DNA of 64,000 nt from an uncultured Alphaproteobacteria bacterium (GCA_934272785.1 CAKQSE010000004.1:10634-74633), one strand, 5' to 3'; positions 15,156-43,285 are shown, counted from the first letter of the stretch. Notes: generated by a model not told the origin, from the letters alone. Numbers and translations: made by a program.

Positions 15156-15174
<19 letters not shown>
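14918..15174. repeat. about 90-bp direct repeat pair; the distal copy carries a duplicate of the tRNA-Pro 3' end
   Basis: Copy 1 (14918-15007) and copy 2 (15086-15174) share CTTTCCTCGCTGG...CCACGCTGCGCGCACAATAAAAAA..ACGCGGTATTTTT.TATTGTGGTCGGAGTGACTGGGTT. The last 19 nt (14989-15007) equal the 3' end of the tRNA gene including CCA. Confidence 0.85.
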
Positions 15175-15232
<58 letters not shown>

Positions 15233-17092: not shown

Positions 17093-17328
17093 TTGGCGAC
17101 AAAAATCCATTATGATATAATTCGCATGTGTGGCGTGTTGCCGCACTGGGTTTAAGCACCCATCAGAAAGCGTCAGCGATGACGAAAAAAATCGCCAGCC
17201 CAAGTGATTGGGGTTGGGGTGTGTCGAATATATTGAATAAGACACGCAATCCTTTCTGATTGTGCTTAAACTCCAACCCACCAATTTTTTTGGTGGCATT
17301 TTGTTTATACAACCAAGGGGGAACACAA

Positions 17329-18339
17329 ATGAAAAAAATACTTACCGTGCTGTTTGCACTGATACTGGCCGCATGCGACCGCCCAATCGCCACAACGGTG
17401 TTGCGACCCGATGCTGAGTTTGGGGAAATGACCGGACCAATCACACTGCGCATATATGATGTTGATAATGTTGTCGCAACCATACACGGCCAAGATATAA
17501 AATTAGTTTCCCAGGGGATAATAAATGACGACAACGATGCAATCCAAACAGAATTAGCATGGGATTGCACATACGGTGACCAAACATTTACAATCCATGG
17601 AATATATGACACCGAAAATAAAACTGTGCATTTTAAATATATTACATATATGGTGGATTCTGACACCACACGGTATAATTACCCAAAAACATTTGCCGCA
17701 GTAGATTTCAAAGACGGCGTTCCTGCCCGTCGCGCCGGTGACATTACGAACAATTGTGACGCGGCAATGAAAAAATGCGATAACGGGCAAGAAATTTATC
17801 TAAGTTGTCCAGACGGTCATGATGGTGCATACGAATATATAACACTGGTCAAATGCCCCGATAAAAGCAATATAATATGCGTGGACAATGGAATATCAAC
17901 GCCACAAACAACATCTGCCGTTACTGACCGAGATCCAGATTCCCTCGGCGGCGTACTGTATTCTGGTAAAAATGGCATCACTGTTAAATACGATCCGTTA
18001 TCTGATACATATTGGACCCACGGTCCCAGTGCATCGGATTTCGATGTCAAATGCATTCAGACAATTAAACTGGAACAACATAAAATCTGTGCCCGTCACA
18101 TAAACAGCATTACCATACGGCTGGCCGGCGGCATATCCGTCGTATTATTTGGCGAACGAACTAACCAGGCGCAAAGTGTATATTTTTCGCCCCTAAGCCA
18201 GGAACAGGCGCTGAGCATCACACCAAATTGGGACTATGCAAACATCAAACACTATAAATATGGCACAGAACCCCACGAGGCAGACGCGTGCGACGTGCTG
18301 CAAAAATTGGAACAATTCCGTTCAAACGTCAACAAATAA
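17329..18339 (+). CDS. Cys-rich lipoprotein, function unknown
   Basis: ATG at 17329 after AAGGGGGAA. The lipobox is MKKILTVLFALILAAC. I recognise no family. Confidence 0.6.
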   Translation: MKKILTVLFALILAACDRPIATTVLRPDAEFGEMTGPITLRIYDVDNVVATIHGQDIKLVSQGIINDDNDAIQTELAWDCTYGDQTFTIHGIYDTENKTVHFKYITYMVDSDTTRYNYPKTFAAVDFKDGVPARRAGDITNNCDAAMKKCDNGQEIYLSCPDGHDGAYEYITLVKCPDKSNIICVDNGISTPQTTSAVTDRDPDSLGGVLYSGKNGITVKYDPLSDTYWTHGPSASDFDVKCIQTIKLEQHKICARHINSITIRLAGGISVVLFGERTNQAQSVYFSPLSQEQALSITPNWDYANIKHYKYGTEPHEADACDVLQKLEQFRSNVNK

Positions 18340-18593: not shown

Positions 18594-19844
18594 TTACTTT
18601 ACACGTTTCAAGACCAATGATGCATTTGTTCCGCCAAATCCGAAACTGTTGCTGATGGCAACATCAACCTTGCGCTTTTTCGCGACATTTGGCACCAGGT
18701 CAAAGTCGCCAACGGCGTCTTCTGGATTTTCCAGATTGATTGTTGGTGGCACAACACCGTCACGTATGGCCAGTGTGCAGAATATCGCCTCAACCGCGCC
18801 GGCGGCACCCAACAGGTGTCCCGTCACAGACTTGGTCGATGACATTGATACCGGCGCATCACCAAACAGGTTTTTAACCGCTGTCAATTCACCAATATCG
18901 CCCAGGCCCGTTGACGTGCCGTGTGCGTTGACATAGTCAACATCCGATGGTTGCAATCCCGCATCGCGTAATGCCGCACGCATCGCGCGCAGGCCGCCCT
19001 CGCCCCCTTCGGCGGGCGCGGTGATATGATACGCGTCACCCGACAGGCCGTATCCAGCAACCTCGGCATAAATTTTTGCACCACGTGCGACGGCGTGTTC
19101 GTATTCTTCCAAAATCAAGATACCTGCACCTTCGGACATAACGAAACCATCGCGGTCTTTGTCCCACGGACGTGATGCCGCGGTCGGATTATCGTTGCGT
19201 GTGGACAGTGCCTTCATCGCGTTAAATCCCGCAATGCCGATTACGTCAATTGCGCCCTCGGTCCCGCCGGCAACCATAATGTCGGCGTCCCCATGTTCGA
19301 TTAAACGTGCGGCCTCGCCAATGGAATGGGCACCAGTTGCGCATGCGGTCACAATCGCCAGGTTTGGTCCCTTTAATCCATACTTGATAGAAATGTGACC
19401 CGCCGTCATATTGATAATAGATTTCGGAATAAAGAACGGGCTGATACGACGTGGACCGCCATTATACAATTCAATACAATTTTCATAAATAGATGTCAGT
19501 CCGCCAATACCCGCACCAACCGACACGCCAAAGCGTTCCTTGTCACCATCATAATCAATCAGACCCGCGTCACGCAATGCCTCGTCTGCGGCGACAACAC
19601 CGTATGCAATCGACTTGTCCATTTTGCGCAATTCTTTTGGGTTCAATACGGCCTCGGGATTATATTGGCCAGGTTCGGTCCCATGAATTGGTAATCCGGC
19701 AATCTGGGTTGCCAGCATTGACGCATCAAACGTATCAATTTTACGAATCCCAGAATTTCCCGCGACAACATTTTTCCACGCATACTCAACGCCCGTGCCG
19801 CACGGTGATACAATACCCATACCGGTAATAACGACTCTTCTCAT
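18594..19844 (-). CDS. fabF: 3-oxoacyl-ACP synthase II
   Basis: 416 aa with the active-site region ACATGAHSIGEA, HGTSTGLGD and NSFGFGGTNASLV. Confidence 0.93.
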   Translation of the reverse strand: MRRVVITGMGIVSPCGTGVEYAWKNVVAGNSGIRKIDTFDASMLATQIAGLPIHGTEPGQYNPEAVLNPKELRKMDKSIAYGVVAADEALRDAGLIDYDGDKERFGVSVGAGIGGLTSIYENCIELYNGGPRRISPFFIPKSIINMTAGHISIKYGLKGPNLAIVTACATGAHSIGEAARLIEHGDADIMVAGGTEGAIDVIGIAGFNAMKALSTRNDNPTAASRPWDKDRDGFVMSEGAGILILEEYEHAVARGAKIYAEVAGYGLSGDAYHITAPAEGGEGGLRAMRAALRDAGLQPSDVDYVNAHGTSTGLGDIGELTAVKNLFGDAPVSMSSTKSVTGHLLGAAGAVEAIFCTLAIRDGVVPPTINLENPEDAVGDFDLVPNVAKKRKVDVAISNSFGFGGTNASLVLKRVK

Positions 19845-19968
19845 ATAATTTTTCCTTTGTCATGATTTAACACACGCATATGATAAACCCTTTGTCCGGT
19901 AAAATACAGAAAAAAAATCCGCCGCCGGGTCATACCCGTGCGACGGACATTTTTTATGAAACGCCGGA

Positions 19969-20202
19969 TTATTTCTGGTGCGCTTCAATGTACTTGACAG
20001 CATCACCAACTGTGTTCAGCTTTGCAGCTTCTTCGTCAGGAATTGTGATATCGAATTCTTTTTCAACTTCCATAACGAATTCTACAACATCCAAAGAATC
20101 AGCACCCAAATCGTTGACGAATGTAGAAGCTTCTGTGATTGTGTCTTCTTTGACATTCAATTTTTCAGCTACGATTTTTTTTACTTTTTCAAAAGTTGTC
20201 AT
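19969..20202 (-). CDS. acpP: acyl carrier protein
   Basis: 77 aa with the [17 protein letters not shown] phosphopantetheine-attachment motif. Lies upstream of fabF. Confidence 0.95.
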
Positions 20203-20336
20203 TTTTTATCCTTTGTTTCGGTTAAATTTGTGGCCCAATATGGGACGTCATTATTCAACGCTATCATTTTATGGCATTGGTGTCAAGAATTTATAACAAA
20301 CGATAACAAAGGCTTGACATTTTACCTATTATATGT

Positions 20337-21332
20337 TTAGGCCATTATTTCGTTCAGTAATGAATTCATATTCGCACGAATATCCTCGCGATCGGGGGCC
20401 CACACCAAGCGGCGCATTAAAAATTTATGTACATCGTCCATCGTCAGCGTCGGTATTCCCGCCGCCACCGCAACCGCACGCCACGCGCGACGCGGATCGG
20501 TCAAATGCCCACGGCCACGCCCCGGGAAAACCCAGCGACCATTTTGCGGCAAATCCTGTAACAGCACAACCGCCTGGTCTGACAATGGCATATCGTTCCA
20601 CATATAATGATTGAAATCCAGGTCACGCCACTGCATCGAAAACACGCGCGATTTTGGCGCAAACCCATACACCAACATTAAAAATGCGGCACGCAGACTA
20701 GCTGATTTTTCCGCGTTTATCGCGTCCATCAATCGATGAAACACAAATCTGTTCAGCGGTCGCACACGACGATTTTGCACAACCTTGGGCAAATCAGAAA
20801 TTATATTTTCCGCGTATCCGTTTTCGGCGGCATATGCGAACATGCTCTGTAATAATTCTTGCATGCGACCACGTATTGCGACGCCATCGATATTTGATAT
20901 CACGTGTTCACAATCCGCACGCGTAATGTCGGACATATTTTTATCGGTCAATTCCCCCAGATGGCGCGTTATCGCACGACGCAATTTTTCACGCGACGCC
21001 GGCACGCGACGCACGCGATTCGTCATATACAAATCAACAAATTTTGAAAATTTAATCTTGCGACGACGGGTCGGCACCGGTGCATCGGCACGCGCCAGAA
21101 TTTCAGACACGGCACTGCGCGCATCTTCGATATCCATATCTGGATACTTTCCGATGATAAAGCGGCGATCACGCCCGCGCACACGATGACGAACAAAGAA
21201 CGTCTTGACCCCACGGCTGGTCACATACATGCGCAAACGCGGTTCTGATAAATCCTGGACCACATCAAAACCCGCACTGGGGGCCGGCAGGTTGTCCAAT
21301 ATGAACGGATTAAAAAAGAACTGGTGCGCCAT
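20337..21332 (-). CDS. P4/DUF4102-type tyrosine recombinase homologue, probably catalytically degenerate or truncated
   Basis: The N-terminal arm-binding pattern (LRMYVTSRGVKTFFVRHRVRGRDRRFIIGKYPDMDIEDAR) and a core-binding region are recognisable. The first catalytic Arg box reads YGFAPKS rather than TG.R..E. The protein ends at 331 aa with no LxH...Y nucleophile segment. Confidence 0.6.
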   Translation of the reverse strand: MAHQFFFNPFILDNLPAPSAGFDVVQDLSEPRLRMYVTSRGVKTFFVRHRVRGRDRRFIIGKYPDMDIEDARSAVSEILARADAPVPTRRRKIKFSKFVDLYMTNRVRRVPASREKLRRAITRHLGELTDKNMSDITRADCEHVISNIDGVAIRGRMQELLQSMFAYAAENGYAENIISDLPKVVQNRRVRPLNRFVFHRLMDAINAEKSASLRAAFLMLVYGFAPKSRVFSMQWRDLDFNHYMWNDMPLSDQAVVLLQDLPQNGRWVFPGRGRGHLTDPRRAWRAVAVAAGIPTLTMDDVHKFLMRRLVWAPDREDIRANMNSLLNEIMA

Positions 21333-21356
21333 GGTGTGTGCCCCCGCGTTAGTTGA

Positions 21357-21773
21357 TTATTTTACATTTGCGTATTTCTGGGTCCAAAAGGTATCACGTT
21401 TTTTACGCCAAAAATCCAAAATTTTTTTCTGGTAAAAATAGCCCACGTTTTGACCATGATTTTTGCAACTGTCAAAATTGCAACAACCTTTTTTACTCAA
21501 GAAACAACAATCTTTGTGTCGTGTCAGTGGTGCAGAACGCAGTCCCATAATTGCCCCCGCCATTGGCGATTGATATGTGTATTCAACAATGCACGCCCAT
21601 GTGTTGTCGGCCGTTTCTTTGTCATCAACCACCGCAGTCATCGCATCGCGCGCATCTTTCAAATCTGCCACCGCGTCATCATAATGATTCAAGACCGCCT
21701 GGTAATCCAATCTGTCATGCGCACGCTGGGCCGCAGATGTCTTTAAATAATATTTCAACTTCTGTATCAACAT
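21357..21773 (-). CDS. Cys-rich family protein, paralogue 1 (unknown function)
   Basis: N-terminus MLIQKLKYYLKTSAAQRAHDR. Cys module CCFLSKKGCCNFDSCKNHGQNVGYFY...FW. The ATG lies 1 nt after the stop of the previous paralogue. Confidence 0.7.
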   Translation of the reverse strand: MLIQKLKYYLKTSAAQRAHDRLDYQAVLNHYDDAVADLKDARDAMTAVVDDKETADNTWACIVEYTYQSPMAGAIMGLRSAPLTRHKDCCFLSKKGCCNFDSCKNHGQNVGYFYQKKILDFWRKKRDTFWTQKYANVK

Positions 21774-21774
21774 T

Positions 21775-22167
21775 TTATCTTACCTTGCTGTATATATTTT
21801 CCCAAAATATTGCTTTTTTATTCAGTGCCAATTCGCACACAGTATACAATTGTGCGCATTCATTATTCGCGGCACGCAACGGGCAATCCTGCTGCTTACA
21901 CGGAACACCATGAATAAAGTGCGGGCATGTGTGTGTTGTTGTGTATTTAACACCTGGCACCTTTTCCAGAATCTTAAACTTTACACAACCCGATACGTCC
22001 GCCGGGTCTTCGTAATAATCCAAATCAACGCTAATCCGATTTAATGCACGGGCATATTTATTTTTTGCAACACCATATTTCATACACAGCGCGCGATATT
22101 CGCCCGCGTTCTGGCGTCTAACGCCTGCTGGCGTTTTCAGCCAATACTTTATTTTTTTAATGTTCAT
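21775..22167 (-). CDS. Cys-rich family protein, paralogue 2 (unknown function)
   Basis: N-terminus MNIKKIKYWLKTPAGVRRQN. Cys module CPHFIHGVPCKQQDCPL...FW. AAGGAT RBS. Confidence 0.7.
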   Translation of the reverse strand: MNIKKIKYWLKTPAGVRRQNAGEYRALCMKYGVAKNKYARALNRISVDLDYYEDPADVSGCVKFKILEKVPGVKYTTTHTCPHFIHGVPCKQQDCPLRAANNECAQLYTVCELALNKKAIFWENIYSKVR

Positions 22168-22179
22168 TTATTTAATCCT

Positions 22180-22614
22180 TTATTTGTTTTCAGCGCGCCC
22201 CATTGCACGTGCCAAAAACGCATCACGTGCGGCAACGGCGGCGTCATAGCGGTCCTTGGCCGCAAAATACGCGGTATTTTTTTCATAAAAGGCACAGTCC
22301 TTGCGCGGACATTTTTTGTCGCCTTCGGCAAAATACCGACAATTATTCTCCCTTACCAACATGGGTGTATATCTGCTCAGGTCATCTCCGCCCAACATAT
22401 TGTTCGGATACGTCAGATATACAACACACGCCTTTCTTAAAACTTCTGTTCGGGACAGTCCATCGGTCACGATACGCAACGCCTCGTGCGCCTGTTCCAT
22501 GTCACGCCCTGCTTCGAAACATTTCAATTCCAGGTCTTCCAACACGGCATTATTCTGCGCACGCTGGGCGGCACTGGTTGTCAAATAATATTTTATCTTG
22601 GCAAAAAAATTCAT
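22180..22614 (-). CDS. Cys-rich family protein, paralogue 3 (unknown function)
   Basis: ORF trimmed to ATG 22614 (GGGGGA RBS). N-terminus MNFFAKIKYYLTTSAAQRAQNN. Cys module CRYFAEGDKKCPRKDCAFYEKNTAYF. Confidence 0.7.
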   Translation of the reverse strand: MNFFAKIKYYLTTSAAQRAQNNAVLEDLELKCFEAGRDMEQAHEALRIVTDGLSRTEVLRKACVVYLTYPNNMLGGDDLSRYTPMLVRENNCRYFAEGDKKCPRKDCAFYEKNTAYFAAKDRYDAAVAARDAFLARAMGRAENK

Positions 22615-22630
22615 AATCGTCCCCCAATTG

Positions 22631-23386
22631 TTATTTTGTTTTTGTTGGCATCCAATCCTTGCCAGCAATCGCACGATATGCCGCACACGCCGCATTATAG
22701 CGGTTTAAAACATCGGCATAATGCGCATTTTTTTCGCGATATGGGCAATTGCGTTCGCATGGCGTCGCAAATTCTGTGCATTTTTCATTTAATGTAAAAC
22801 TGTGCGACGGACCATCAGAATCCAACACCGCCCAATCACCGGCCCCATAATACGCCGACACAAAGCAGCCCATTTTTACCAACGGCCCGCTGTTTGGATT
22901 GATACAAACATGTGTCGATATCGCAGATTTTGCCAACGTCAATTCATTTTCCAAATCGGCGCATTGCGCATTTAAATGTGCAATTTCTGTATTCCGTTCT
23001 TGCCGGGCACGCGCCGCCTGGGCAATACGCAACGCACAACGCTCTGGCCAGAATTCCTTTTCCTTGACCAGGGCCGTCCCATACGCACGAAACGCGTCAA
23101 AATATTTATGATTTTCACCCAGATACGGACATTCTTTATCCATGCACGGCCCCTGTATTTCTGGCTGGAACGCCGCGCAACGCGTATCCGTATTATCCAG
23201 CAAATCATCAAATATTCCGCGTGTCGCCCCAATATGCTCGCCACTGCATACCAGCGCATATTCCATATCCTTTACACGCGCCTCTTTTTCCTTGGCATCA
23301 TGGACCAACTGTTTAAAATCCGCCCTATCTTGCGCACGCTGTGTGGCATCCGTATTCAAATAATATTTAATTCTTTTCAACATCAT
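22631..23386 (-). CDS. Cys-rich family protein, paralogue 4 (two Cys modules)
   Basis: ORF trimmed to ATG 23386 (AAGGGGG RBS). N-terminus MMLKRIKYYLNTDATQRAQDR. Modules CAAFQPEIQGPCMDKECPYLGENHKYF and CTEFATPCERNCPYREKNAHYA, joined by a coiled linker LNAQCADLENEL. Confidence 0.72.
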   Translation of the reverse strand: MMLKRIKYYLNTDATQRAQDRADFKQLVHDAKEKEARVKDMEYALVCSGEHIGATRGIFDDLLDNTDTRCAAFQPEIQGPCMDKECPYLGENHKYFDAFRAYGTALVKEKEFWPERCALRIAQAARARQERNTEIAHLNAQCADLENELTLAKSAISTHVCINPNSGPLVKMGCFVSAYYGAGDWAVLDSDGPSHSFTLNEKCTEFATPCERNCPYREKNAHYADVLNRYNAACAAYRAIAGKDWMPTKTK

Positions 23387-23402
23387 TTTCGCCCCCTTGG
23401 AC

Positions 23403-24182
23403 TTAGCGTTCATTTAATGGTTTCCACTCGCGTTCTGTCATCAATCTGTATGCCTCGCACGCCTTTCTGTAACGCTCCTGAACATTGGCATAGTGTTGAT
23501 TTCGCGCATTGTAATAGCAATCGACGCGCGTGCACGGCACACGAAATTCTGGACAGTGGTCTATTCGTGACCATATCATTCCCGGGTAATCATCACTGGT
23601 GTCAAATGATTTAGAACTATACGACACATCCAAAAAACAACCTTTCTCACGTGGGGGTGTCCACTCTGGCGTAGCGAATTCATAACCGGTTATTGCCTGC
23701 CGGGCCTGTTCAAGTTCGCGATATAAATCCGCACACTGTGCGTCCAGGGTATCTATTGCTGTCTGGACCGCGGGACTGTTTGGATACTTGGCGGCCTCGA
23801 TACGTGATGCCTTTCTATCTTCCCAAAATGCTTTTACATATTCCTTGGCCTGGTCATATTCACGATACACATTGCGATACTTTACATATTCGGGATAATA
23901 CATACATGTTTTTTTCCAGCATCCACCATCACGGGAAAAAATCCAAAACCTCCTACAATGCTCATCTTCTATTTTGCCGGGCAGTATTTCGCCCCAAATC
24001 CCCGGGAAATTTTTCAAATAGCGATGAACACATCCACCGCGATGTGACAATTCGGTCTTGACCTCTTCCAGTTTTACGCGTTTTTTCTGCATATCATTCC
24101 ACAATGAGCGAAACGCCGCACGATCCGCCGCACGCATTTCTGCATCTGTTGCCAGGTAATATTTTATCGTTTTAAACAGCAT
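23403..24182 (-). CDS. Cys-rich family protein, paralogue 5 (two Cys modules)
   Basis: N-terminus MLFKTIKYYLATDAEMRAADR. Modules CRRFWIFSRDGGCWKKTCMYYPEYVKY and CPEFRVPCTRVDCYYNARNQHYA, with linker LDAQCADLYREL. GGGGGAT RBS. Confidence 0.72.
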   Translation of the reverse strand: MLFKTIKYYLATDAEMRAADRAAFRSLWNDMQKKRVKLEEVKTELSHRGGCVHRYLKNFPGIWGEILPGKIEDEHCRRFWIFSRDGGCWKKTCMYYPEYVKYRNVYREYDQAKEYVKAFWEDRKASRIEAAKYPNSPAVQTAIDTLDAQCADLYRELEQARQAITGYEFATPEWTPPREKGCFLDVSYSSKSFDTSDDYPGMIWSRIDHCPEFRVPCTRVDCYYNARNQHYANVQERYRKACEAYRLMTEREWKPLNER

Positions 24183-24211
24183 CTAAATCCCCCGTGTTTT
24201 AAACCCGATTT

Positions 24212-24559
24212 TTATTTTTGGTGTTTCTTGCCTGTTTTCCAGAAATCACGGCGCAATGCGGCATAGCATGCCATTTTTTGACGCGATTCATAATATTCCA
24301 TATTGTCGCCATACAGCGCACACTTGGAATTATCGCACGGTCTGTTATCCTTGTAGTGTTCGCAACGCTCTTTCATCCCAGACGCATCAAAACCAATACA
24401 ATGGCATTCCGGGGTGCCGCGCATCATATTTTTATATGCCAATTCCGCCCGTTGAATACTTTCTTGTTCTTTTTCCTTGATACGTTCATAGATATATTTA
24501 TCTGCGACGCGCGCGTCTTTGCTTGTTACCAGGTAATAGGTCAATTTATCAATCAGCAT
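24212..24559 (-). CDS. Cys-rich family protein, paralogue 6 (unknown function)
   Basis: N-terminus MLIDKLTYYLVTSKDARVADK. Module CEHYKDNRPCDNSKCALYGDNMEYY...FW. The ATG lies 20 nt after the lepA stop, with AAAGGAG in between. Confidence 0.7.
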   Translation of the reverse strand: MLIDKLTYYLVTSKDARVADKYIYERIKEKEQESIQRAELAYKNMMRGTPECHCIGFDASGMKERCEHYKDNRPCDNSKCALYGDNMEYYESRQKMACYAALRRDFWKTGKKHQK

Positions 24560-24579
24560 TTAAACACTCCTTTACTATG

Positions 24580-26376
24580 CTATGACACTTTCAGTGCATT
24601 GATAAATGCGCTCTGCGGGATTTCGACATTACCGAATGTCCGCATACGCTTTTTCCCCTCCTTCTGCTTCTCTAACAGCTTGCGTTTACGGGTGATATCC
24701 CCGCCATAACATTTCGCCGTAACATCCTTGCGATACGCGGCGATTGTTTCACGCGCAATAATTTTGCCACCGATTGCCGCCTGTAACGGAATCTTGAACT
24801 GGTGACGCGGAATTAAATCTTTCAGTTTTTCAACAATCTGGCGACCACGTTTTTCCGCGAAACTGCGATGGCACATAAACGACAGCGGCTCTACATTTTC
24901 ATCATTGACCAGAATCGATACCTTGACCAAATCAGACGGCTGGTATCCGTTCACGACATAGTCAAACGACGCATACCCCGACGATATAGATTTCACCCGA
25001 TCATAGAAATCAAATACAATTTCCGCCAGCGGTAATTGATATACCAAAACCGCACGATTTCCGACATAGGAAATATTTTCCTGGATTCCGCGCCGCTCTG
25101 AACACAGGGACATAATTCCACCCATGTATTTATCAGGCATCATAATCGTTGCGCGCACCCAGGGTTCTTCGATGGATTCAATCTTGGTCAATTCAGGCAT
25201 ATCCGCCGGATTTTCCAAATCAATCGTCGTGCCGTCACGCATATGCACCTTGTATAGCACACTGGGCACCGTGTTTATCAGCGTCAGATTAAATTCCCGC
25301 GCCAGGCGTTCGCTGATAATTTCCATGTGCAACAGTCCCAAGAATCCGCAGCGCAACCCGAACCCCAGCGCAGATGACTTTTCCGTTGTGAACATAAACG
25401 ACGCGTCATTCAGTGCCAACTTTTCCGCACTGTCGCGCAGGTTGGGATAATCATCAGCAGATACCGGGAAAAATGACGAAAATACAACCGGCACCGATGG
25501 CTTGAACCCCGGCAACGCGTCGGCCACATCGGCCGATTTTGCATCGGCAATCGTATCGCCCACGCGGCAATCGTGAATTGTCTTCATACCGGTAATAATA
25601 AACCCGATTTCGCCGGTATCCAGCACGGTTGTATCAACCATCTTGGGTGTAAAGTATCCGATTTTTTCAACCGTGTATTCTGCCCCCGTGGCCAAGAATT
25701 TTATCTTTTGCCCGCGTGATAATTTACCGTCAACCACACGCACCAAAATCACCACGCCCAGATAAGAATCATACCACGAATCCACCAACAGCGCGCGCGT
25801 CGGCGCATTTTCATCGCCATGTGGCGCGGGTAATTTATGAACGATTTCTTCCAATAATTCGGGAACGCCCGCCCCGGTTTTGCCCGACACACACATCGCG
25901 TTCGCGGCGTCCAATCCAATAACATCGGCAATTTGTTCACGCGTCGCCGCGACATCACTGGACGGCAAATCAATCTTGTTCAGCACCGGCAACATTTCCA
26001 AATCATTATCCAACGCCAAATACGCGTTTGCCAGTGTTTGCGCCTGGACCCCCTGGGTTGCATCAACCAGAACCAGCGCCCCCTCGCACGCGGCCAAACT
26101 GCGCGACACCTCGTAAGAAAAGTCTACGTGTCCCGGCGTATCCATCAAATTCAATTGGTATGTTTGCCCATCGCGCGCATGGTAATTCAGACGCACCGTC
26201 TGGGCCTTTATCGTAATGCCGCGTTCGCGTTCAATATCCATAGAATCCAGGACCTGGGCCTTCATCTCGCGCGATTGCAGGCCACCGGTATATTCAATCA
26301 ACCGGTCCGACAATGTCGATTTACCGTGATCAATATGGGCAACAATTGCAAAATTTCTGATGTTCTTTTGGCTCAT
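24580..26376 (-). CDS. lepA: translation elongation factor 4 (LepA)
   Basis: 598 aa with [23 protein letters not shown] and DTPGHVDF, plus the LepA C-terminal region. Confidence 0.96.
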
Positions 26377-26409
26377 TTGCGAATGCCTTTACCTGGTCCA
26401 CTCGCGGCA

Positions 26410-26438
26410 ATGATACACCAGTATATTCGAACATGCAA
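26410..26438 (-). promoter_or_regulatory. candidate promoter upstream of lepA
   Basis: Minus strand: TTGCAT (26438-26433), 17-nt spacer, TATCAT (26415-26410). Confidence 0.3.
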
Positions 26439-26446
26439 CCTGTTTC

Positions 26447-26878
26447 TTAGCGGTTTTTCAATGTTTTTTGCATCAGCATATTATACCCGACCTGCTCAAA
26501 ACCATGCTTGGTATAAAAACTCTTGGCCTGGACCGTCGGGGCCGAATATAACTGAATCAATTCAAAATTGTTTTTACGACAAAAATCCTCGTATGCCTGT
26601 ATCAAAACCGTGCCAACGCCACTGCGACGATATATTCCGTCCACAAACAGATAGTCCACATGCATATGATTTTTGCCCAAAACCTTGTGCCCTTTGATAA
26701 AGCCCATCGGGGCATGCGCGCCATCAAACACGAACATCGTATGACCCGCCTTCTCTACCTCCTGGGCCAGGCTGTAATACAAATTCACTGCCTCGTCCGG
26801 GCGAATTTGACTCACAATATAATAGCAATCACGCAACAATGCGTCAGGAACCTGAAAAACCTGTCGTAATCCGGCCAT
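26447..26878 (-). CDS. GNAT-family N-acetyltransferase
   Basis: 143 aa with the acetyl-CoA binding pattern RRSGVGTVLIQAYEDFCRKN...FYTKHGF. Confidence 0.75.
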   Translation of the reverse strand: MAGLRQVFQVPDALLRDCYYIVSQIRPDEAVNLYYSLAQEVEKAGHTMFVFDGAHAPMGFIKGHKVLGKNHMHVDYLFVDGIYRRSGVGTVLIQAYEDFCRKNNFELIQLYSAPTVQAKSFYTKHGFEQVGYNMLMQKTLKNR

Positions 26879-26882
26879 TTTT

Positions 26883-27245
26883 TTACTCCAATTCTAAATT
26901 ATCCAGCAACGCGTCAATCCGCGCCGCGCGTTCCAATGTATCATCATACTCAAATTTTATATCAGGAACGTATTTCTGATCCATGCGCGCGGCCAGTTCA
27001 TATCGCACCATACGTGTGATTTCGTCCATACGCTTTTGCACCGCCGCCACATCAGAATTACGCGAATAGTAAAACAGACGCACAAATTGCAACCCACCAT
27101 GCGCAACCGCCCCGACCAGCGACACCCCAGATATGATTTTATCATCGCTGTAATTATCGCGCAGGATTTCCGCGACCAACGTTTGTACCTTGGACGCGAC
27201 GCGCGACGCACGATTTGAATTATTTGCTGCCTGCTTTTTTGGCAT
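26883..27245 (-). CDS. rbfA: ribosome-binding factor A
   Basis: 120 aa. RASRVASKVQTLVAEILRD......VSLVG....GLQFVRLFY and the C-terminal pattern are RbfA-like. Confidence 0.8.
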   Translation of the reverse strand: MPKKQAANNSNRASRVASKVQTLVAEILRDNYSDDKIISGVSLVGAVAHGGLQFVRLFYYSRNSDVAAVQKRMDEITRMVRYELAARMDQKYVPDIKFEYDDTLERAARIDALLDNLELE

Positions 27246-27272
27246 AATTACCCCTGTATTTGATATCTCATA

Positions 27273-27301
27273 TTGTAAATTAGTAGAAATTCCGCTATAA
27301 T
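27273..27301 (+). promoter_or_regulatory. candidate promoter for the YqaA-like gene
   Basis: TTGTAA (27273-27278), 17-nt spacer, TATAAT (27296-27301). Confidence 0.35.
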
Positions 27302-27319
27302 CAAGAAAAATTTTTACCC

Positions 27320-27910
27320 ATGGACGGTATCATCATGAAATTGGTCGATTTTGTATTAAAGCAATCTGAACACCCCATGTATTCGTGGGTCGTGTTTATT
27401 CTGACAATATGCGAGTCTATATTTTTATTCATCCCGCCCGAGGTGTTTATGACCCCGCCCATCATCGCGAACAAGCGACGCGCCGTGCCAATCGTAACGG
27501 CGGCGGCATTGGGTTCAATTGTCGGCGGCGCGATTGCGTATATGATTGGGGCATGGCTGTATGACTCGGTCGGGATGTGGCTGATAACAACATTTTCAGA
27601 CCCCGAATTGATTGAATCCACCGTCCGCCCAATGTTCACAAAATATGGCGTGCTGATAATCGTGCTGACGGCGGTAACACCAATACCGTATAAATTGCTG
27701 GCGATCTGGCTGGGCTTTATAGGATTCCCAATCTGGTTATTTTTGGGTGTATCGGCAATATTCCGCACGGCGCGATTTGCAATTGTGGGCTATCTGTTGT
27801 GGCAATTCCAAGAACGCGCAAACGCCATTGTGAAAAAGTATTTTTGGCCATTGACATTGGGCGCAATCATCGCCGCCGGCCTGGGCATCTGCCTGATATC
27901 GCTGTTTTAA
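27320..27910 (+). CDS. YqaA/DedA-related (VTT-domain) inner-membrane protein
   Basis: 196 aa and polytopic. The segment FLFIPPEVFMTPPIIANKRRAVPIVTAAALGSIVGGAIAYMIG resembles COG1238/YqaA. The start could instead be Met6 (27335). Confidence 0.65.
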   Translation: MDGIIMKLVDFVLKQSEHPMYSWVVFILTICESIFLFIPPEVFMTPPIIANKRRAVPIVTAAALGSIVGGAIAYMIGAWLYDSVGMWLITTFSDPELIESTVRPMFTKYGVLIIVLTAVTPIPYKLLAIWLGFIGFPIWLFLGVSAIFRTARFAIVGYLLWQFQERANAIVKKYFWPLTLGAIIAAGLGICLISLF

Positions 27911-28821: not shown

Positions 28822-29700
28822 TTATTCAATCCAAATCGCGGCATACGTTGTCGCCGTTGATGATCCAACAGGAACCTGGACATTTCCCTTGGTCACCGTG
28901 ACCTTGCCGTCTGTCTGGGTAACATTTGTTACAACCGCACCCGTGCCTGTGGACGTGCTGTCCAAGGCGTCCAACTGAGCCTTGGTTGCGAACGTTGTTC
29001 CCTTGGTAACGGTGTATTTGCCATCCGCAACGGTTACAGCCGTAACCGCATTCCCAGTCCCGGTGGTTGTCACCGAAACCGGTGCGACATCACCAGTTGC
29101 CCCAGTTATCAATATTTTGTTTTTATTAGACTCACCCTGCGACTTGTCAACAGAATTATTCCCAGCCGCAATATTCGCAATATCCCACGCGGCGGCAACT
29201 GTCGGAACCTTGGCATCTTCGGTGGCTGACGTTTCATCAATCCCCGACGCCGATGTCATTATACGAACACCACCCTTTTCTGTGGCACTGGCATCCGGCA
29301 ATGAATATTTTGTATCTGTCCCAGTTATTGTCACAACACCATTTGCAATACCGACGCTGACACTGCCTGCGCCCTTTAAATTTGTTGTCGTCAACGTTGG
29401 CTGCTTACCACCCAATGCCGTTGTAATTGCGCCACGGGTCATTGTTCCGTCGGTGCTGGTGCCTGTCGAGGTATACAACTTTGTTGTTCCGGAATAAGCC
29501 TCGGTTCCGGTGGTATACGTTGTATTTGTATCTGTGGCATTGATAACAATCTTGCCACTGTTTGTGCCCGATGTTGGATTTTCAATCGTAACATTTGTGC
29601 CGGCAACAATGTTTGTCTTGGACACAATTTCCGCACGCGCACCGGTTACAACCAACATGGCAAAAATCGAAACGGTAAAGATACTTTTAACACATCTCAT
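28822..29700 (-). CDS. fibrous surface protein 1 (Thr/Ala/Gly-rich, phage-tail-fibre-like modules)
   Basis: Start set at ATG 29700, giving the signal peptide MRCVKSIFTVSIFAMLVVTGARA (the ORF track extends to 29754). Shares with the next gene the modules GVVTITGTDTKYSLPDAS..GGV and KVPTVAAAWDIANIA. C-terminus VQVPVGSSTATTYAAIWIE. Confidence 0.7.
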   Translation of the reverse strand: MRCVKSIFTVSIFAMLVVTGARAEIVSKTNIVAGTNVTIENPTSGTNSGKIVINATDTNTTYTTGTEAYSGTTKLYTSTGTSTDGTMTRGAITTALGGKQPTLTTTNLKGAGSVSVGIANGVVTITGTDTKYSLPDASATEKGGVRIMTSASGIDETSATEDAKVPTVAAAWDIANIAAGNNSVDKSQGESNKNKILITGATGDVAPVSVTTTGTGNAVTAVTVADGKYTVTKGTTFATKAQLDALDSTSTGTGAVVTNVTQTDGKVTVTKGNVQVPVGSSTATTYAAIWIE

Positions 29701-29818
29701 AACGCTACATTCTGTATATTTAATCTCTCTGATGTATAATACCAAATTCTTCACATTGTGACAAGTCTATTTCCATGGTGCGCACAGACAAATCCGCACG
29801 CACCACAGAAATCAGACA

Positions 29819-31261
29819 TTAACGACCAATTTTTTCCCATGTATATGTTGGAACACTGTTCACAACCTTCATCGTCAGCGTGTATGTTCCATCTGTGGAT
29901 GTTGCAGATTCTGCCGGTGCAACAAACTTTGCCGCCAATGCCGTATCCAGCCCAGTAATCTTGGACGTTGCCAACGCTGGGATATCAGCCGCAGTCAGGT
30001 CAGAACCACCAGTTACCAAACCTTTCGCATCATATGTAATTTTTGTTTTGGTACCACCTGTAATTGCGGTATTGGCCACAACCGCCGCACTCGCTGTCTT
30101 CTGGGCTGCATCTGCCGCTGATTTAGCATTGGCCGCCGCAGTAGCTGCATCAGTACCCGCTTTCTTCGCATCTGCAATGGCCGCATTCGCTACCTTGTTT
30201 TGAACAGGGTTCGTGCTGGTATCACTCATTGCTGTATCAACCATTACACCACCCAGAACTTTATCTGTCGCGGCTGGCAATGTGTATTTAGTGTCCGCCG
30301 AACTAATCGTAACGACGCCAGTCGTTGCATCACGCGAAACTGTGACATTTGTTCCGTTCTTGATTAAACCCGCCGGGATATCAGCCGCAGTCAGGTCAGA
30401 ACCACCAGTTACCAAACCTTTCGCATCATATGTAATTTTTGTTTTGGTACCACCTGTAATTGCGGTATTGGCCACAACCGCCGCACTCGCTGTCTTCTGG
30501 GCTGCATCTGCCGCTGATTTAGCATTGGCCGCCGCAGTAGCTGCATCAGTACCCGCTTTCTTCGCATCTGCAATGGCCGCATTCGCTACCTTGTTTTGAA
30601 CAGGGTTCGTGCTGGTATCACTCATTGCTGTATCAACCATTACACCACCCAGAACTTTATCTGTCGCGGCTGGCAATGTGTATTTAGTGTCCGCCGAACT
30701 AATCGTCACGACGCCAGTCGATGCATTACGTGAAACCGTAACGTTTGTTCCAGCAGTAATCAATCCATCCTTGACCTTTAACGGCGTAACCGAATCCGTC
30801 GCCAATTTAGCATCTGTAACGGCCGAGTCTGCGATTTTGGCCGTGGTTACTGCATTTGCACCTATTTTATCCGCCGTGACGGCACCATTGGCAATTTTCC
30901 CATTTGTCACCGCGCTGTTTGTAATCATACCCGTTGCGATTGTTCCAGTTGTAACCGTCCCAGACGCATTAGTAATCAATGCCTTGTTTGCACCAGCGGT
31001 TCCCTGTTCCTTTTCAACCGCATTATCACCCAATGCAACATTCGCAATGTTATAAGCCGCCGCAACAGTTGGATAGCTGGTGTCATCCTTCTCGCTAAGT
31101 TGTTCGGTCGATGTTTTTTTGTTCGCCTTCACTTCCATATCATTACGAATAGCGGCGTCCTTGGTATCGACATACGCGGTTGATGCGATGTCTGCGCGGG
31201 CCGCGGGCGCCATCATAATCGCAATCAATGAAACAGCCAACAATCCAGATAATTTTTTCAT
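29819..31261 (-). CDS. fibrous surface protein 2 (contains a 132-aa perfect tandem duplication)
   Basis: Signal peptide MKKLSGLLAVSLIAIMMAPAARA, then the DIASTAYVD neck motif. TKITYDAKGLVTGGSDLTAADIPA resembles the phage tail-fibre repeat. C-terminus GTYTLTMKVVNSVPTYTWEKIGR. Confidence 0.75.
   Translation of the reverse strand: MKKLSGLLAVSLIAIMMAPAARADIASTAYVDTKDAAIRNDMEVKANKKTSTEQLSEKDDTSYPTVAAAYNIANVALGDNAVEKEQGTAGANKALITNASGTVTTGTIATGMITNSAVTNGKIANGAVTADKIGANAVTTAKIADSAVTDAKLATDSVTPLKVKDGLITAGTNVTVSRNASTGVVTISSADTKYTLPAATDKVLGGVMVDTAMSDTSTNPVQNKVANAAIADAKKAGTDAATAAANAKSAADAAQKTASAAVVANTAITGGTKTKITYDAKGLVTGGSDLTAADIPAGLIKNGTNVTVSRDATTGVVTISSADTKYTLPAATDKVLGGVMVDTAMSDTSTNPVQNKVANAAIADAKKAGTDAATAAANAKSAADAAQKTASAAVVANTAITGGTKTKITYDAKGLVTGGSDLTAADIPALATSKITGLDTALAAKFVAPAESATSTDGTYTLTMKVVNSVPTYTWEKIGR
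29979..30770. repeat. in-frame 396-bp tandem duplication inside fibre gene 2
   Basis: 29979-30310 is identical base for base to 30375-30706 (332 bp). The last roughly 64 bp of each unit diverge. The 396-bp period equals 132 codons. Confidence 0.95.
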
Positions 31262-31349
31262 AACCCTAAAACCTTTTTATTTTTTTATTTAACCACAATC
31301 CCTGAACCTGTGTCGGGGCATTCCCCGCCCCCGACACAGCATTTTTTAT

Positions 31350-32543
31350 TTATTCACCTGTCGATTCACTTGCGTCACGTTCAACGCTTTCCCAAGCATA
31401 ACCATTATTTCCAACAGTCAACACGCATTTTGCACCCAATGTTGTGCATGCGTCAGTTGGTGCAGGAATAGCTTTGTCAGCAACTGCTTTCGCCGCGGCC
31501 GCGTCTGTTACACCCTGGTCTGCCTTGGTCTGAGCCGCTGTAATTTTCGCATCATAACCATCATATGTGGTTACTTTTGTCGCCGTGATGCCAGAATTTA
31601 CCGCGCTCAACTGCGCTTCTGTCAAAGCGTCTTGTTTCTTTGCGATATCTTCGGTATTTTTAGTGATATTTTCTGTATTGGTGGCAATTGCATCAATCCT
31701 TTCTTTGGTAACACCTGTGCCTTCCAATGTCGTTACACGACCAGCCAGACCAGAATCATCATATTCATACGTTGCGCTGATGGTGCCATCTTCGGCAATT
31801 GTGATGTTTGAACCTTGTTTCAAGGTATTCTGTTTTTTCGCTAATTCTTCATTAACATATGTCGTAGATGCCTTGGTCGCCAAACCTGTTGTAGCATTAT
31901 TCACAGCGGCGGCTGTATCATCTGCAGTTTTTCCCTGGGCAGTGGTTGCATAATTACCAGCCAAGCCGTCTGCATATGTTTTTGCATTTTGCTCGGCAGT
32001 GGCGGCCGCACCCTTGGCATCATATGCAGCGTCAGCACGTGCTGTTTCCGTTGTAATTGCATCTGCAATGGATTTTGCAATAGAACCATCACCATCACCA
32101 GTCAATGTCCCCAATGTTGTGGTGTGACCCGCAACTGTTGTTTGCAAATTGCCTAATTCTTCTGATGTGGCAACACTTGCTGTGGAGTATTTAATTTTGC
32201 CATCGTCACCAACTGTCACGGCGGTCACAACGTTTCCTGTGCCATCTTTTACAAAGTCAGCAGCGGTCAATGTATTCTGCTTCTTGCCCAATTCTGCGGT
32301 TACTGTTTCAGAATCTGCCTTTTTGGCGATCGCATCTGTATTTGCTGTAACTTTTTCAGACAACACTGTAACAGTTGAAGCATCTGCCTTGGTTCCGACA
32401 GTTGTTGTCAAATCAGCAATCGCATCAGCGTTCACTTTCACCTTTGCATCAACGTATTTCTGTGATGTCAGGGCTGCGTCAGCAGAGTTTGCCGCGACAA
32501 CGCCCAACAATACTGTAAATATACCAGCGGTTAATTTTTTCAT
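31350..32543 (-). CDS. fibrous surface protein 3
   Basis: Signal peptide MKKLTAGIFTVLLGVVAANSADA. Motifs include SQKYVDAK, YVNEELAKKQNTL and KKQDALTEAQLSAVNSGITATKVTTYDGYDAKI. C-terminal knob IPAPTDACTTLGAKCVLTVGNNGYAWESV. Confidence 0.75.
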   Translation of the reverse strand: MKKLTAGIFTVLLGVVAANSADAALTSQKYVDAKVKVNADAIADLTTTVGTKADASTVTVLSEKVTANTDAIAKKADSETVTAELGKKQNTLTAADFVKDGTGNVVTAVTVGDDGKIKYSTASVATSEELGNLQTTVAGHTTTLGTLTGDGDGSIAKSIADAITTETARADAAYDAKGAAATAEQNAKTYADGLAGNYATTAQGKTADDTAAAVNNATTGLATKASTTYVNEELAKKQNTLKQGSNITIAEDGTISATYEYDDSGLAGRVTTLEGTGVTKERIDAIATNTENITKNTEDIAKKQDALTEAQLSAVNSGITATKVTTYDGYDAKITAAQTKADQGVTDAAAAKAVADKAIPAPTDACTTLGAKCVLTVGNNGYAWESVERDASESTGE

Positions 32544-32599
32544 TTTTCTTTCCTTTCTTTTTTGTTTTTTATTTTTTGTTTAAATCTTGGTTGGTGTGC

Positions 32600-33805
32600 T
32601 TATTCTTCTCCCAATGGGGCAGTTACATCCATCCACATCATATTTTTGGACGCCGCGTCCACAGACAGAACGCAACGACCGGATTCGGCGGCACATGAGC
32701 CCTCTGGCTTTGGAATAGTTGTGTCAAATTTGTCATCAACCGCTTTTTTATCATAGACGTCATCGGCGTTTGCCTTTTTCGCCAATTCTGTGTTCACTGT
32801 TGCCGCGTCAGCCTTGGCATCCAACGCATCTTTGATGTCACCCGTTGTCAACGCGTTCGTAATTGCACCAGTTACGTCAGCCATTGATGTAAAGTCTGTC
32901 AGCTTTTTATCAGAAACCTGATACTGGCCATTGGCATCAACTGTCGCGATATTGCCGGCGTTTGCCGCATCAACCGTCAACTTGTTTGCTTTGGTCGCCA
33001 TACCTTCTTGGTATGTTGTTTCTTTTACATAGCCTTTCAAATCAACGTCACCCGCCTGGATATCACCAATTAATGTATTCACCTGTGCCTTGGTATATGT
33101 ATCAACTTTGCGGTATACATCATTATTGATTTCATTGATTGCGCCAACGATTGTTTTTGCATCGGTGGTTAAATCACCCTCGCCAACCTTGGTGTTGATG
33201 TTGGAAATGTTTGTTTCATTTGTCGAAACACGACCAGTCAACGCGGTTAAATCCGTCTTGTTCTGATCCGCTGTGGCCTGGGCGGCTGATGCAGCCGTTG
33301 CAGCATTACCGGCCTTGGTATCCGCAGCAGCAGCGGCGGCGGCGGCGTCAGCGGCAGCCTGGGTCGCGTCAGCGACACCCTTGGTCAAACCAGATTCTGC
33401 ATCACCGATTGCCGTTTTATTTGCATTGGCAGTGGTCTGGGCCGCATCGGCTGCTTCCTTGGCCGCGTTTGCAGTATTTTCGACACCTGTTACAGCGTCT
33501 TTCTTGGCATACGTTGTTTCAGCATCCGCAGATTTCAAGTAACCATCCAAGTCAGCTGCGTCCGCCTTGCCATCAATCGTGGTGGTCAAATTGGTAACAT
33601 TTTGTTGTAATTCGTTCACCGTGGTTTTATCGGCCTTGCCTTCGACTGTTGTGGTCAAATTAGTAATCTTTTCTGTGGTCGTCTTGTCAATATTATCAAC
33701 ATACTGACGGCTGGCGATTTCAATCTTGGCATTTGCCGCCGTGGCACCCGCCGACAACATTATCGCCGCCATAAAACCAGAAAAAGCTATGTTTTTTACT
33801 TTCAT
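32600..33805 (-). CDS. fibrous surface protein 4 (long Ala-rich coiled segment)
   Basis: Signal peptide MKVKNIAFSGFMAAIMLSAGATAANA, SRQYVDN motif, repeated TTV.GKAD heptad-like units. C-terminal knob IPKPEGSCAAESGRCVLSVDAASKNMMWMDV parallels that of fibre 3. Confidence 0.75.
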   Translation of the reverse strand: MKVKNIAFSGFMAAIMLSAGATAANAKIEIASRQYVDNIDKTTTEKITNLTTTVEGKADKTTVNELQQNVTNLTTTIDGKADAADLDGYLKSADAETTYAKKDAVTGVENTANAAKEAADAAQTTANANKTAIGDAESGLTKGVADATQAAADAAAAAAAADTKAGNAATAASAAQATADQNKTDLTALTGRVSTNETNISNINTKVGEGDLTTDAKTIVGAINEINNDVYRKVDTYTKAQVNTLIGDIQAGDVDLKGYVKETTYQEGMATKANKLTVDAANAGNIATVDANGQYQVSDKKLTDFTSMADVTGAITNALTTGDIKDALDAKADAATVNTELAKKANADDVYDKKAVDDKFDTTIPKPEGSCAAESGRCVLSVDAASKNMMWMDVTAPLGEE

Positions 33806-33880
33806 TTTTCGTTCCTTTCTGTCCTTTCATTTTGCCCCGTTCCCCGTTATGGCGGAAGATTGAAGCCAAATTCCCCTTAC

Positions 33881-42545: not shown

Positions 42546-42770
42546 ATGCCAAACGTTATGCAGCAATTGTTCATCATGAACATAGAATCACTGCTGCGTG
42601 AATATGCCGCGTATCGCGCGTTTAACAAATCAGATTGCGTTATAAATATGCGAATCCCGCGCCCTATTCTGGACCGGATTAAACAGCTGGCCGAACAGCA
42701 ACACGTCCCATATCAATCCCTGATATCGTCGGTATTATTTTCACTGGCCAATATCGAAGAACAAAAATAA
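42546..42770 (+). CDS. BrnA-like CopG/ribbon-helix-helix antitoxin-family protein (no adjacent toxin)
   Basis: 74 aa. INMRIPRPILDRIKQLAEQQHVPYQSLISSVL matches the BrnA pattern (RLP..LL..LK..A....VPYQSLIK). Confidence 0.55.
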   Translation: MPNVMQQLFIMNIESLLREYAAYRAFNKSDCVINMRIPRPILDRIKQLAEQQHVPYQSLISSVLFSLANIEEQK

Positions 42771-42830: not shown

Positions 42831-43187
42831 TTACCACCGACCAGTAATATCACACCCCAGCCTTCCTCCCTCACCAGCCGCACTCATCAAGAACGACAAG
42901 ATTATACCGATACCAAACAGCATAATAAAGCCGACCATCATACCAATACCCTTGTCTTTCAGATCATCCTTTTTCACTTCACCCTTAGAGATATAACCCC
43001 ACGCCCATCCGGCGATAACAAACGCCGCACCAACAAATGCCAATGTGCGCAACGTCCCAAATACGCCCTTCATTTGATTAATCAACGCACACAATCCTTC
43101 GTTTCCGCCTGCACCGGCCGCAAATGCCGGCATGGATGCCATAACACCAATCAGTGCGAAATTAAATTTTTTCAACATTTTTTTCAT
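42831..43187 (-). CDS. virB2: TrbC/VirB2-like type IV secretion pilin (orphan)
   Basis: ORF trimmed to ATG 43187 (AAAGGGGA RBS). It has a long signal peptide MKKMLKKFNFALIGVMASMPAFA and two hydrophobic helices (LRTLAFVGAAFVIAGWAWGY, IGMMVGFIMLFGIGIILSFL). Size is 118 aa. Confidence 0.5.
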   Translation of the reverse strand: MKKMLKKFNFALIGVMASMPAFAAGAGGNEGLCALINQMKGVFGTLRTLAFVGAAFVIAGWAWGYISKGEVKKDDLKDKGIGMMVGFIMLFGIGIILSFLMSAAGEGGRLGCDITGRW

Positions 43188-43285
43188 ATGAATCCCCTTT
43201 GTTTCCTTTGATACGCTAATTTTATCATAATTCGCCCCCCCTTTCAAATATAAAAAATACGCATGGCAACCCGCCACACGTATTA

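Follow-up and report, generated by a model that had tools for sequence, protein, structure and literature searches.

What do six small genes packed directly behind lepA encode, and what might they be doing there? The question arises in a stretch of 64,000 nucleotides (nt) from an uncultured Alphaproteobacteria bacterium (GCA_934272785.1 CAKQSE010000004.1:10634-74633), called the window throughout, where positions 21357-24559 hold six co-oriented minus-strand genes (G1, next to lepA, to G6) that encode eight copies of one cysteine-rich module. The proteins form a previously undescribed family, without a relative in any curated library searched, and their genes lie in a conserved locus together with an integrase-like gene, intL, that appears to have lost catalysis. 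We suggest, with a probability of about 0.4, that the array encodes a set of cytoplasmic binders, each a helical hairpin clamped by a metal, and that it is the remnant of an anciently fixed integrated element.

The array and its four-cysteine module

An earlier reading of the sequence alone (the sequence-only reading) had described six tandem minus-strand paralogues, two of them with a double module. All six open reading frames (ORFs) are present, each matches a profile hidden Markov model (HMM) of the family with E = 1e-14 to 1e-33 (1.4e-14 for G1), and G2 and G3 each contain two HMM domains. The packing behind lepA is as tight as described. G1 starts 20 nt after the lepA stop, the genes are then separated by 29, 16, 16, 12 and 1 nt, intL follows G6 after 24 nt, and each of the six start codons has a purine-rich Shine-Dalgarno (SD) sequence of the AAGGAG, GGGGGA or AAGG type 5-9 nt on its 5' side. 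Some start sites allow a choice: gene callers picked 251, 250 or 260 amino acids (aa) for G3 orthologues on related contigs, and the reading frame of G4 is open as far as 22695. As the sequence-only reading had stated, there is no strong minus-strand terminator between the genes (19800-27400 scanned). The same region has 13 terminator-like matches (9.9 +/- 3.6 in shuffled sequence) and 24 promoter-like matches (15.9 +/- 4.5), neither a clear excess. The six proteins also lack a signal peptide or transmembrane segment, since no 19-residue window is hydrophobic enough (maximum hydropathy 0.85 in the six and 1.54 in 131 relatives).

We rejected an integron cassette array. In an integron, an active IntI gene points away from the cassettes, each of which is followed by an attC inverted-repeat site of about 60-140 nt. 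Here the gaps are only 1-29 nt, no attC-like or cassette-type inverted repeats flank the genes, and the neighbouring intL is of the P4/CP4 Arm-domain type, co-oriented, downstream and catalytically dead. Direct repeats in the DNA of the array are confined to the 5' coding ends of the genes, which are homologous and 60-80% identical.

Alignment defines the module. M1, Y8, L10, T12, R17, four cysteines and one Phe are invariant among the six proteins, and once G2 and G3 are divided into their modules, the alignment of all eight has the four cysteines invariant and an Arg, an Asn and a Tyr nearly so. In the 131 relatives the four cysteines are again invariant, a Trp is kept in 94%, and the spacing is C1-x10-36-C2-x5-14-C3-x4-C4. 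The signature begins with [KR]-Y-x-[LIF]-K-T, D-x-x-E-Y-x-x-L and [GA]-C-[IV], continues after x10-36 with C-x-x-F and after x5-14 with C-x4-C-[P]-[YF]-x3-N-x-x-Y-[F]-x-A-x3-Y, and ends in F-W-x-x-K-[FY]-x2-3-K. The N-terminal and cysteine motifs first noticed in the window are conserved across the eight modules and the 131 relatives, with one correction. Three of the proposed cysteines and the accompanying Asn and Tyr stand, but the fourth cysteine, which had been placed about 18 residues downstream, lies upstream, 11-28 residues before the first of those three in this window. Ahead of C1, and again from C1 to C2, both the sequence and its length are hypervariable, and broad family alignments contain no conserved stretch of 7-10 residues. 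In 86 of the 131 sequences, 35 residues separate C4 from the C-terminus. The proteins are basic (median isoelectric point 9.1; 90% above 8.5), with conserved Lys/Arg at both termini and a net charge of +2 to +4 over the last 12 residues in most members.

The AlphaFold2 model of G4, built on the alignment of 131 sequences, has a predicted local distance difference test (pLDDT) score of 90.6 and a predicted template modelling (pTM) score of 0.80. It runs from a short helix formed by the N-terminal motif (residues 3-12) and a long helix (15-44) through a compact part that consists of three strands with short helices and holds C63 and C92, to a loop with C102 and C107 and a second long helix (110-143). 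The four cysteines border one compact sub-domain in this secondary structure. With high confidence, then, the prediction for each module is a long hairpin of antiparallel helices that has the conserved, aromatic-rich and basic termini at one end and, at the other, a small alpha/beta region pinned by the four invariant cysteines. We infer that these cysteines hold a metal, most likely Zn(II), with an iron-sulfur cluster as the alternative.

Two other readings of this architecture meet their main evidence here. A conserved N-terminus, a variable Cys-rich region and several tandem copies could describe precursors of ribosomally synthesized and post-translationally modified peptides, with a conserved leader and a variable Cys-rich core. 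However, the proteins are 115-259 aa long and a globular fold is predicted for them with confidence, both termini are equally conserved, the C-terminus lies at a fixed distance from C4, and no modifying enzyme, protease or exporter occurs in any conserved neighbourhood. On these grounds we regard the precursor reading as effectively refuted.

The conserved, positively charged tail (FW..K[FY]..K-COOH), in a fast-evolving, multi-copy family of host-associated bacteria, could also mark secreted effectors such as substrates of type IV secretion, which would be recognised by the basic C-terminus and delivered to host or competitor cells. Yet the model places the conserved C-terminus within the hairpin itself, and translocated substrates, which have to unfold, seldom contain invariant four-cysteine sites of cytoplasmic type. 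Genes for type IV secretion or any other secretion system are absent from the 64-kb window and from the related loci that were fetched. The 'virB2-like' gene through which a link to type IV secretion had been floated has no type IV pilin match in Pfam and no type IV secretion neighbours, and it lies 19 kb from the array, so that the link is unsupported. We consider secreted effectors very improbable.

The claim that the family is unrecognised held in every type of search. The six proteins gave no significant or recurrent match in Pfam, PHROGs, NCBIfam or PADLOC; the best PADLOC value, E = 0.008 for one protein, and the best PHROG value, E = 0.005 over a coiled-coil stretch, are not significant. 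Pfam searches with the 131 relatives returned scattered sub-threshold matches and no recurring family, and PDB sequence profiles gave nothing below E = 0.4. Structure comparison with Foldseek was equally negative for two models against the PDB and for the G4 model against BFVD, with a best E for the G4 model of 0.79 in the PDB and 0.31 in BFVD, and so neither profile HMMs nor predicted structures led to a characterised family. Translated searches (tblastn) found no relatives in phage records and none in plasmid records, where two haloarchaeal low-complexity matches were due to chance; a scan of IMG/VR viral contigs was also empty. No source gives any member a name, and we found nothing relevant in the literature on the clade, on lepA-linked Cys-rich paralogues or on dead integrases.

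Comparison with known four-cysteine proteins points the same way. WhiB-like (Wbl) proteins are small, cytoplasmic and restricted to Actinobacteria, with four invariant cysteines spaced C-x14-22-C-x2-C-x5-C and several paralogues encoded by dispersed genes. The array family resembles them as small four-cysteine proteins of cytoplasmic type that are lineage-restricted and occur as several divergent paralogues per genome. It differs in its cysteine spacing, has no match to the WhiB model (PF02467), is predicted to form a long hairpin instead of the compact Wbl bundle, and is encoded in tandem. In phage P2 the Ogr pattern is C-x2-C-x22-C-x4-C, and the Delta protein of P4 is a head-to-tail fusion of two Ogr-like modules. 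Small four-cysteine proteins linked to P4-type integrases, with two-module fusions such as G2 and G3, are a likeness to this group, but only the final C-x4-C of the array family is similar. It has no CxxC pair and no match to the Ogr_Delta model (PF04606), its proteins are twice as long with long flanking helices, and no phage or satellite copy exists in the records searched.

DksA/TraR proteins share with the family an antiparallel coiled coil and a four-cysteine site in a small cytoplasmic protein. However, the CxxC-x17-CxxC finger of DksA lies in a globular base that leaves the coiled-coil tip free, whereas the cysteine cluster of the array family is predicted at the tip, between the helices; CxxC pairs are absent, and there is no zf-dskA_traR match (PF01258; Pfam searched at E <= 1 for the six proteins and E <= 0.01 for the 131 relatives) and no Foldseek match. 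The spacing C-x5-14-C-x4-C and the 115-145 aa per module do not agree with radical SAM enzymes either, whose CX3CX2C cluster motif sits in a TIM-barrel domain and which likewise have no Pfam match here. The sequence-only reading was therefore right to set aside radical SAM, paired-CXXC and DksA/TraR proteins, none of which is matched in Pfam or NCBIfam. The top Foldseek matches are generic antiparallel coiled coils (the F1-ATPase gamma subunit, the V-ATPase D subunit, prefoldin and SH3BP5). The ATPase subunits and prefoldin share the antiparallel N- and C-terminal helices and an inserted globular part, but these matches are insignificant (E >= 0.79, query-normalised template modelling score <= 0.42) and without sequence similarity, and those proteins have no four-cysteine site.

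A fixed locus with changing gene content

An exhaustive HMMER profile search of 1.84 billion representatives found 284 family clusters, defined at 50% identity, with E <= 1e-3, and 62 of these with E <= 1e-10. Nearly all are 115-150 aa long or of double length. A word-indexed protein search under-reported the family badly, returning 8 and 6 matches that were close orthologues only. One high-scoring match (P0025; 1038 aa, 11 stretches) was discarded as a repetitive unrelated protein. As far as sampled, the family is confined to one clade of uncultured gut alphaproteobacteria, in which contigs bearing members reach 0.9 Mb.

The locus itself is conserved. The order (VTT/DedA), rbfA, (GNAT), lepA, array, intL of 331-338 aa, acpP, fabF is found in 10 of the 11 sampled lineages and on every contig long enough to judge, contig L012 excepted. 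Shorter contigs agree with it: L022 has lepA and then a member, L023 and L024 have a member and then intL, and L025 has a member, intL and acpP in order. Gaps are 1-38 nt throughout the locus, with 15-38 nt between the last family gene and intL. The sequence-only reading had described strong local duplication next to an integrase relic; the conserved locus and the 284 clusters do not fit a recent local burst beside a remnant that is there by chance. What does vary behind lepA is the copy number, from 3 to at least 7. There are six family genes in the window, in L001-L008 and in L010 (a Hadza gut metagenome-assembled genome, MAG), three in L009 and L011 (UMGS1304, labelled 'uncultured Rickettsiales') and in L019 and L020, four in L016-L018, five in L015, seven in L014 and at least seven in L013.

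Such linkage could suggest translation or ribosome factors tied to LepA and RbfA, with the array as one part of a ribosome-biogenesis operon (rbfA, GNAT, lepA) and its products as zinc proteins that bind rRNA or the 30S subunit. The first family gene lies 2-33 nt behind lepA in eight lineages, rbfA and a RimI-like GNAT gene are just upstream, and the proteins are basic. However, such factors are normally single-copy and slow to evolve. Across these lineages LepA is 90-99% identical to that of the window, whereas the best matches among family members are 24-40% identical (62-94% for intL and 79-98% for fabF). In addition, the copy number differs between contigs with an identical first gene, and in L016-L018 rbfA is inverted relative to lepA with the array kept. 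A role in translation is in our view improbable.

Changes in gene content can be followed between contigs. L014 and L015 have an identical first gene, yet seven and five genes, respectively. The third gene of L015 is a chimera that joins the N-terminus of the third gene of L014 to the body of its fifth, and this therefore appears to be a deletion by recombination inside the conserved 5' region. In L011 the third gene has a body of G4 type and ends in a tail of G6 type (...YWAQKHANVK), and the array has lost G2, G5 and most of G6; G2 and G5 are missing from the three-gene arrays of both L009 and L011. These comparisons show that the array gains and loses genes through unequal crossing-over, for which the conserved gene ends provide the homology. 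The tandem duplication described by the sequence-only reading stands, and the copy numbers and chimeras describe a process of birth and death.

One variant of the module deserves separate mention. L016 (10437-11045), like L017 and L018, encodes a 202-aa array member fused to an ACP-like phosphopantetheine-binding domain. The ACP-like part has an intact DSL phosphopantetheine motif, is 38% identical to the neighbouring acpP product and replaces the KY..KT helix, after which a normal four-cysteine module follows. The fusion was found in three independent samples.

Rates of change were estimated as pairwise Nei-Gojobori ratios of nonsynonymous to synonymous substitutions (dN/dS) between orthologous arrays from gut metagenome assemblies. 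For G1-G6 the ratio is 0.02-0.46 and typically about 0.2 (G1 0.05-0.18, G2 0.26-0.30, G3 0.19-0.22, G4 0.20-0.31, G5 0.02-0.07, G6 0.28-0.46), against 0.00-0.12 for rbfA, lepA, acpP, fabF and intL at the same synonymous distances, and dN in the array is about 5-10 times that of the neighbouring genes. The ORFs are under purifying selection and are real, translated genes, as had been claimed. Change is concentrated in the cysteine region, where dN/dS is 0.21-0.35 versus 0.10-0.16 in the N-terminal helices, and where up to 41% of the residues between C1 and C4 differ from the L011 orthologues versus 17% in the N-terminal helices. No region reached dN/dS > 1, the mark of positive selection.

The integrase-like neighbour and the role of the array

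The gene intL matches Arm-DNA-bind_3 in Pfam at 1.1e-7, the Phage_integrase catalytic-domain model only at E = 0.057, and the PHROG 1 integrase at 1e-25 over residues 29-292. Its product resembles the N-domain of a CP4-like integrase (3jtz), and its orthologues carry precomputed PF22022 and PF14659 matches. The DNA-binding part of a tyrosine recombinase, that is, the Arm-type and core-binding domains, is present, whereas the catalytic set R-K-H-R-H/W-Y is not. When intL was aligned with one bona fide phage integrase and the orthologues of four other lineages, all five lineages had Arg-I replaced by Ala, the HxxR box changed to D-D-V-H/N, and the segment with the third His and the Tyr nucleophile deleted. 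Among the best 120 of 1085 homologues, all are 331-362 aa long and none has a precomputed PF00589 match. The gene is nevertheless full-length in every lineage, with dN/dS of 0.06-0.12. The 'integrase relic' of the sequence-only reading is thus not decaying: it has lost its catalytic residues and is strongly constrained. To judge from these changes, intL derives from an integrase that has been domesticated and is catalytically dead, and it has been conserved together with the array.

We propose the following course of events for the binder panel. An element would have integrated between lepA and acpP in the ancestor of the clade, with the array in its int-proximal slot, where temperate elements carry accessory genes. 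The element would then have become fixed and its integrase domesticated as a DNA-binding protein. The lepA and array block may be co-transcribed and translationally coupled, and so expressed constitutively. The constant base of each paralogue would dock to a shared partner or nucleic acid, and its variable cysteine region would recognise a different, fast-changing target. If each binder combines an unchanging base with a tip that varies, the most likely role is one in genetic conflict, such as the neutralisation of phage or toxin proteins, and not a housekeeping function. This evolutionary pattern would agree with the earlier idea that the family consists of diversifying effectors, anti-defence proteins or regulators.

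The place of the array beside intL invites comparison with the int-proximal accessory genes of temperate phages, satellites and genomic islands, such as xis, genes for recombination directionality factors (RDFs), and anti-host and defence hotspots. In lambda-like and P4-like elements, xis/RDF and accessory genes sit upstream of int and co-oriented with it. The array shares this position relative to a P4/CP4-type integrase homologue, as well as the variable content and fast evolution of such genes. Unlike them, it accompanies a dead integrase in a fixed, vertically inherited, core chromosomal locus, has no att repeats or tRNA, and carries cargo of one family only.

The same position speaks for another reading, in which the proteins are small nucleic-acid-binding regulators or nucleoid proteins that partner intL, RDF-like or architectural, and are re-used for transcriptional control, for example of acpP-fabF or of foreign DNA. 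The family always lies directly upstream of intL, co-oriented and at gaps of 15-38 nt, where temperate elements have their xis and RDF genes, the DNA-binding domains of intL are under strong constraint, and the high isoelectric point and the conserved Lys/Arg at both termini would suit such a role. But no helix-turn-helix or known DNA-binding zinc-finger signature was found by Pfam in the six proteins or the 131 relatives, and RDFs are normally single-copy and 55-100 aa long. Architectural DNA binders would not be expected to occur as three to eight divergent paralogues per genome with a cysteine region that is hypervariable, and a dead recombinase needs no directionality factor. We hold this reading to be doubtful.

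A more speculative version would treat the array and intL as one system derived from the ancient element. In it intL would give DNA binding or docking, and the interchangeable paralogues would serve as its sensor or specificity subunits, one for each kind of invader (a phage or mobile-element protein or DNA), with a repertoire renewed by unequal crossing-over. This would amount to a recombinase-derived immune or exclusion module with a new fold, which we think improbable as a whole.

Several observations count against the binder panel that we favor. No region exceeds a dN/dS of 1, and relaxed constraint would yield the same numbers as diversifying selection. The conflict role is drawn solely from the evolutionary pattern and the architecture, co-transcription with lepA solely from the spacing, and the origin in an element solely from intL; the locus has neither an att site nor a tRNA. 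None of the six proteins matches PADLOC or PHROGs, and more generally the ties to present-day phages, plasmids and known defence systems that the earlier idea implied did not appear in PHROGs, PADLOC or the phage, plasmid and viral scans. Typical defence islands also differ from the array, which is part of the core chromosome and is stably passed on by vertical descent. Finally, the only member found away from lepA is a single copy on contig L012 (MAG GCA_965320375.1; 10001-10393), downstream of leuS, where the neighbouring small ORFs are not family members and there is no intL nearby.

If our proposal is correct, the family represents a new scaffold, a helical hairpin that is clamped by a metal and has a hypervariable tip. 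Such a scaffold would matter to the study of protein evolution and perhaps also to binder engineering. The locus would also show clearly, in nature, that a tyrosine integrase can lose its catalytic activity and still be kept for a long time under strong constraint beside its former cargo, and it would point to clade-specific biology in widespread uncultured alphaproteobacteria of the human and animal gut. The significance is limited by the narrow taxonomic range. The fixed link to lepA is a simple handle for expression studies.

Surroundings in the window

The window is core chromosome, with genes for S7, EF-G, EF-Tu, L3 and L4, dnaN, dnaA, gyrB, efp, tolB and dnaJ (Table 1). The genes dnaN, gyrB and dnaA are 25-40 kb from the array, which is probably close to the replication origin and hence at high gene dosage. 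The cumulative GC skew falls over almost the whole window, with brief rises at 16-18 kb, 38-40 kb and 54-56 kb. The only tRNA found is a tRNA-Pro.

Table 1. Positions of the array genes and of other features in the window
Feature	Coordinates	Strand	Description
G1	24212-24559	minus	115 aa, single module; shortest Cys region; Cys 54, 66, 75, 80
G2	23403-24182	minus	259 aa, double module; Cys 51, 76, 88, 93 and 182, 210, 217, 222
G3	22631-23386	minus	251 aa from SD-preceded ATG, double module; 260 aa if the start is 23413
G4	22180-22614	minus	144 aa, single module; Cys 63, 92, 102, 107; member modelled with AlphaFold
G5	21775-22167	minus	130 aa, single module
G6	21357-21773	minus	138 aa, single module; fastest-evolving of the six
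intL	20337-21332	minus	331 aa; Arm-type N-terminal domain
acpP	19969-20202	minus	conserved downstream flank
fabF	18594-19844	minus	conserved downstream flank
lepA	24580-26376	minus	EF4 GTPase, 598 aa; Pfam GTP_EFTU, EFG_C and LepA_C on orthologues
GNAT acetyltransferase	26447-26878	minus	RimI-like; between rbfA and lepA
rbfA	26883-27245	minus	upstream of lepA
Lipoprotein-like gene	17260-18339	plus	about 360 aa; beside fabF
Run of five large genes	28822-35944	minus	310-687 aa; upstream of VTT/DedA
Gene within the run	29819-31261		weak phage head-fibre match
Gene within the run	33881-35944		collagen triple-helix repeats
CopG-type antitoxin gene	42546-42770	plus	adjoins the 'virB2-like' ORF
'virB2-like' ORF	42831-43277	minus	small membrane protein
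dnaN	47852-49003
gyrB	56939-58918
dnaA	60628-61962
tRNA-Pro	15156-15232

Upstream of lepA, rbfA and the GNAT gene may be in the same transcription unit. The GNAT gene is present in the window, L001-L005, L008, L010 and L019, and absent from L009, L011, L013, L014, L015 and L016-L018. In L016-L018 the inversion relative to lepA includes the VTT gene paired with rbfA, and the array is retained.

The 'virB2-like' ORF encodes a protein with a signal-like N-terminus and two hydrophobic segments. Beyond VTT/DedA, the run of five large genes is mostly without Pfam matches. Their lengths differ between L001 and L002, their counterparts in L019 have faint YadA-head and fibritin matches, and they may encode variable surface fibres. 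On the other side of the array, the lipoprotein-like gene has no Pfam match and lies in opposite orientation in different strains (L001:16238-17329 versus L003:14464-15555). L001, L002 and L004 have a GT61 glycosyltransferase gene that the window and L003 lack. The region of the lipoprotein-like gene looks like a local inversion or insertion polymorphism.

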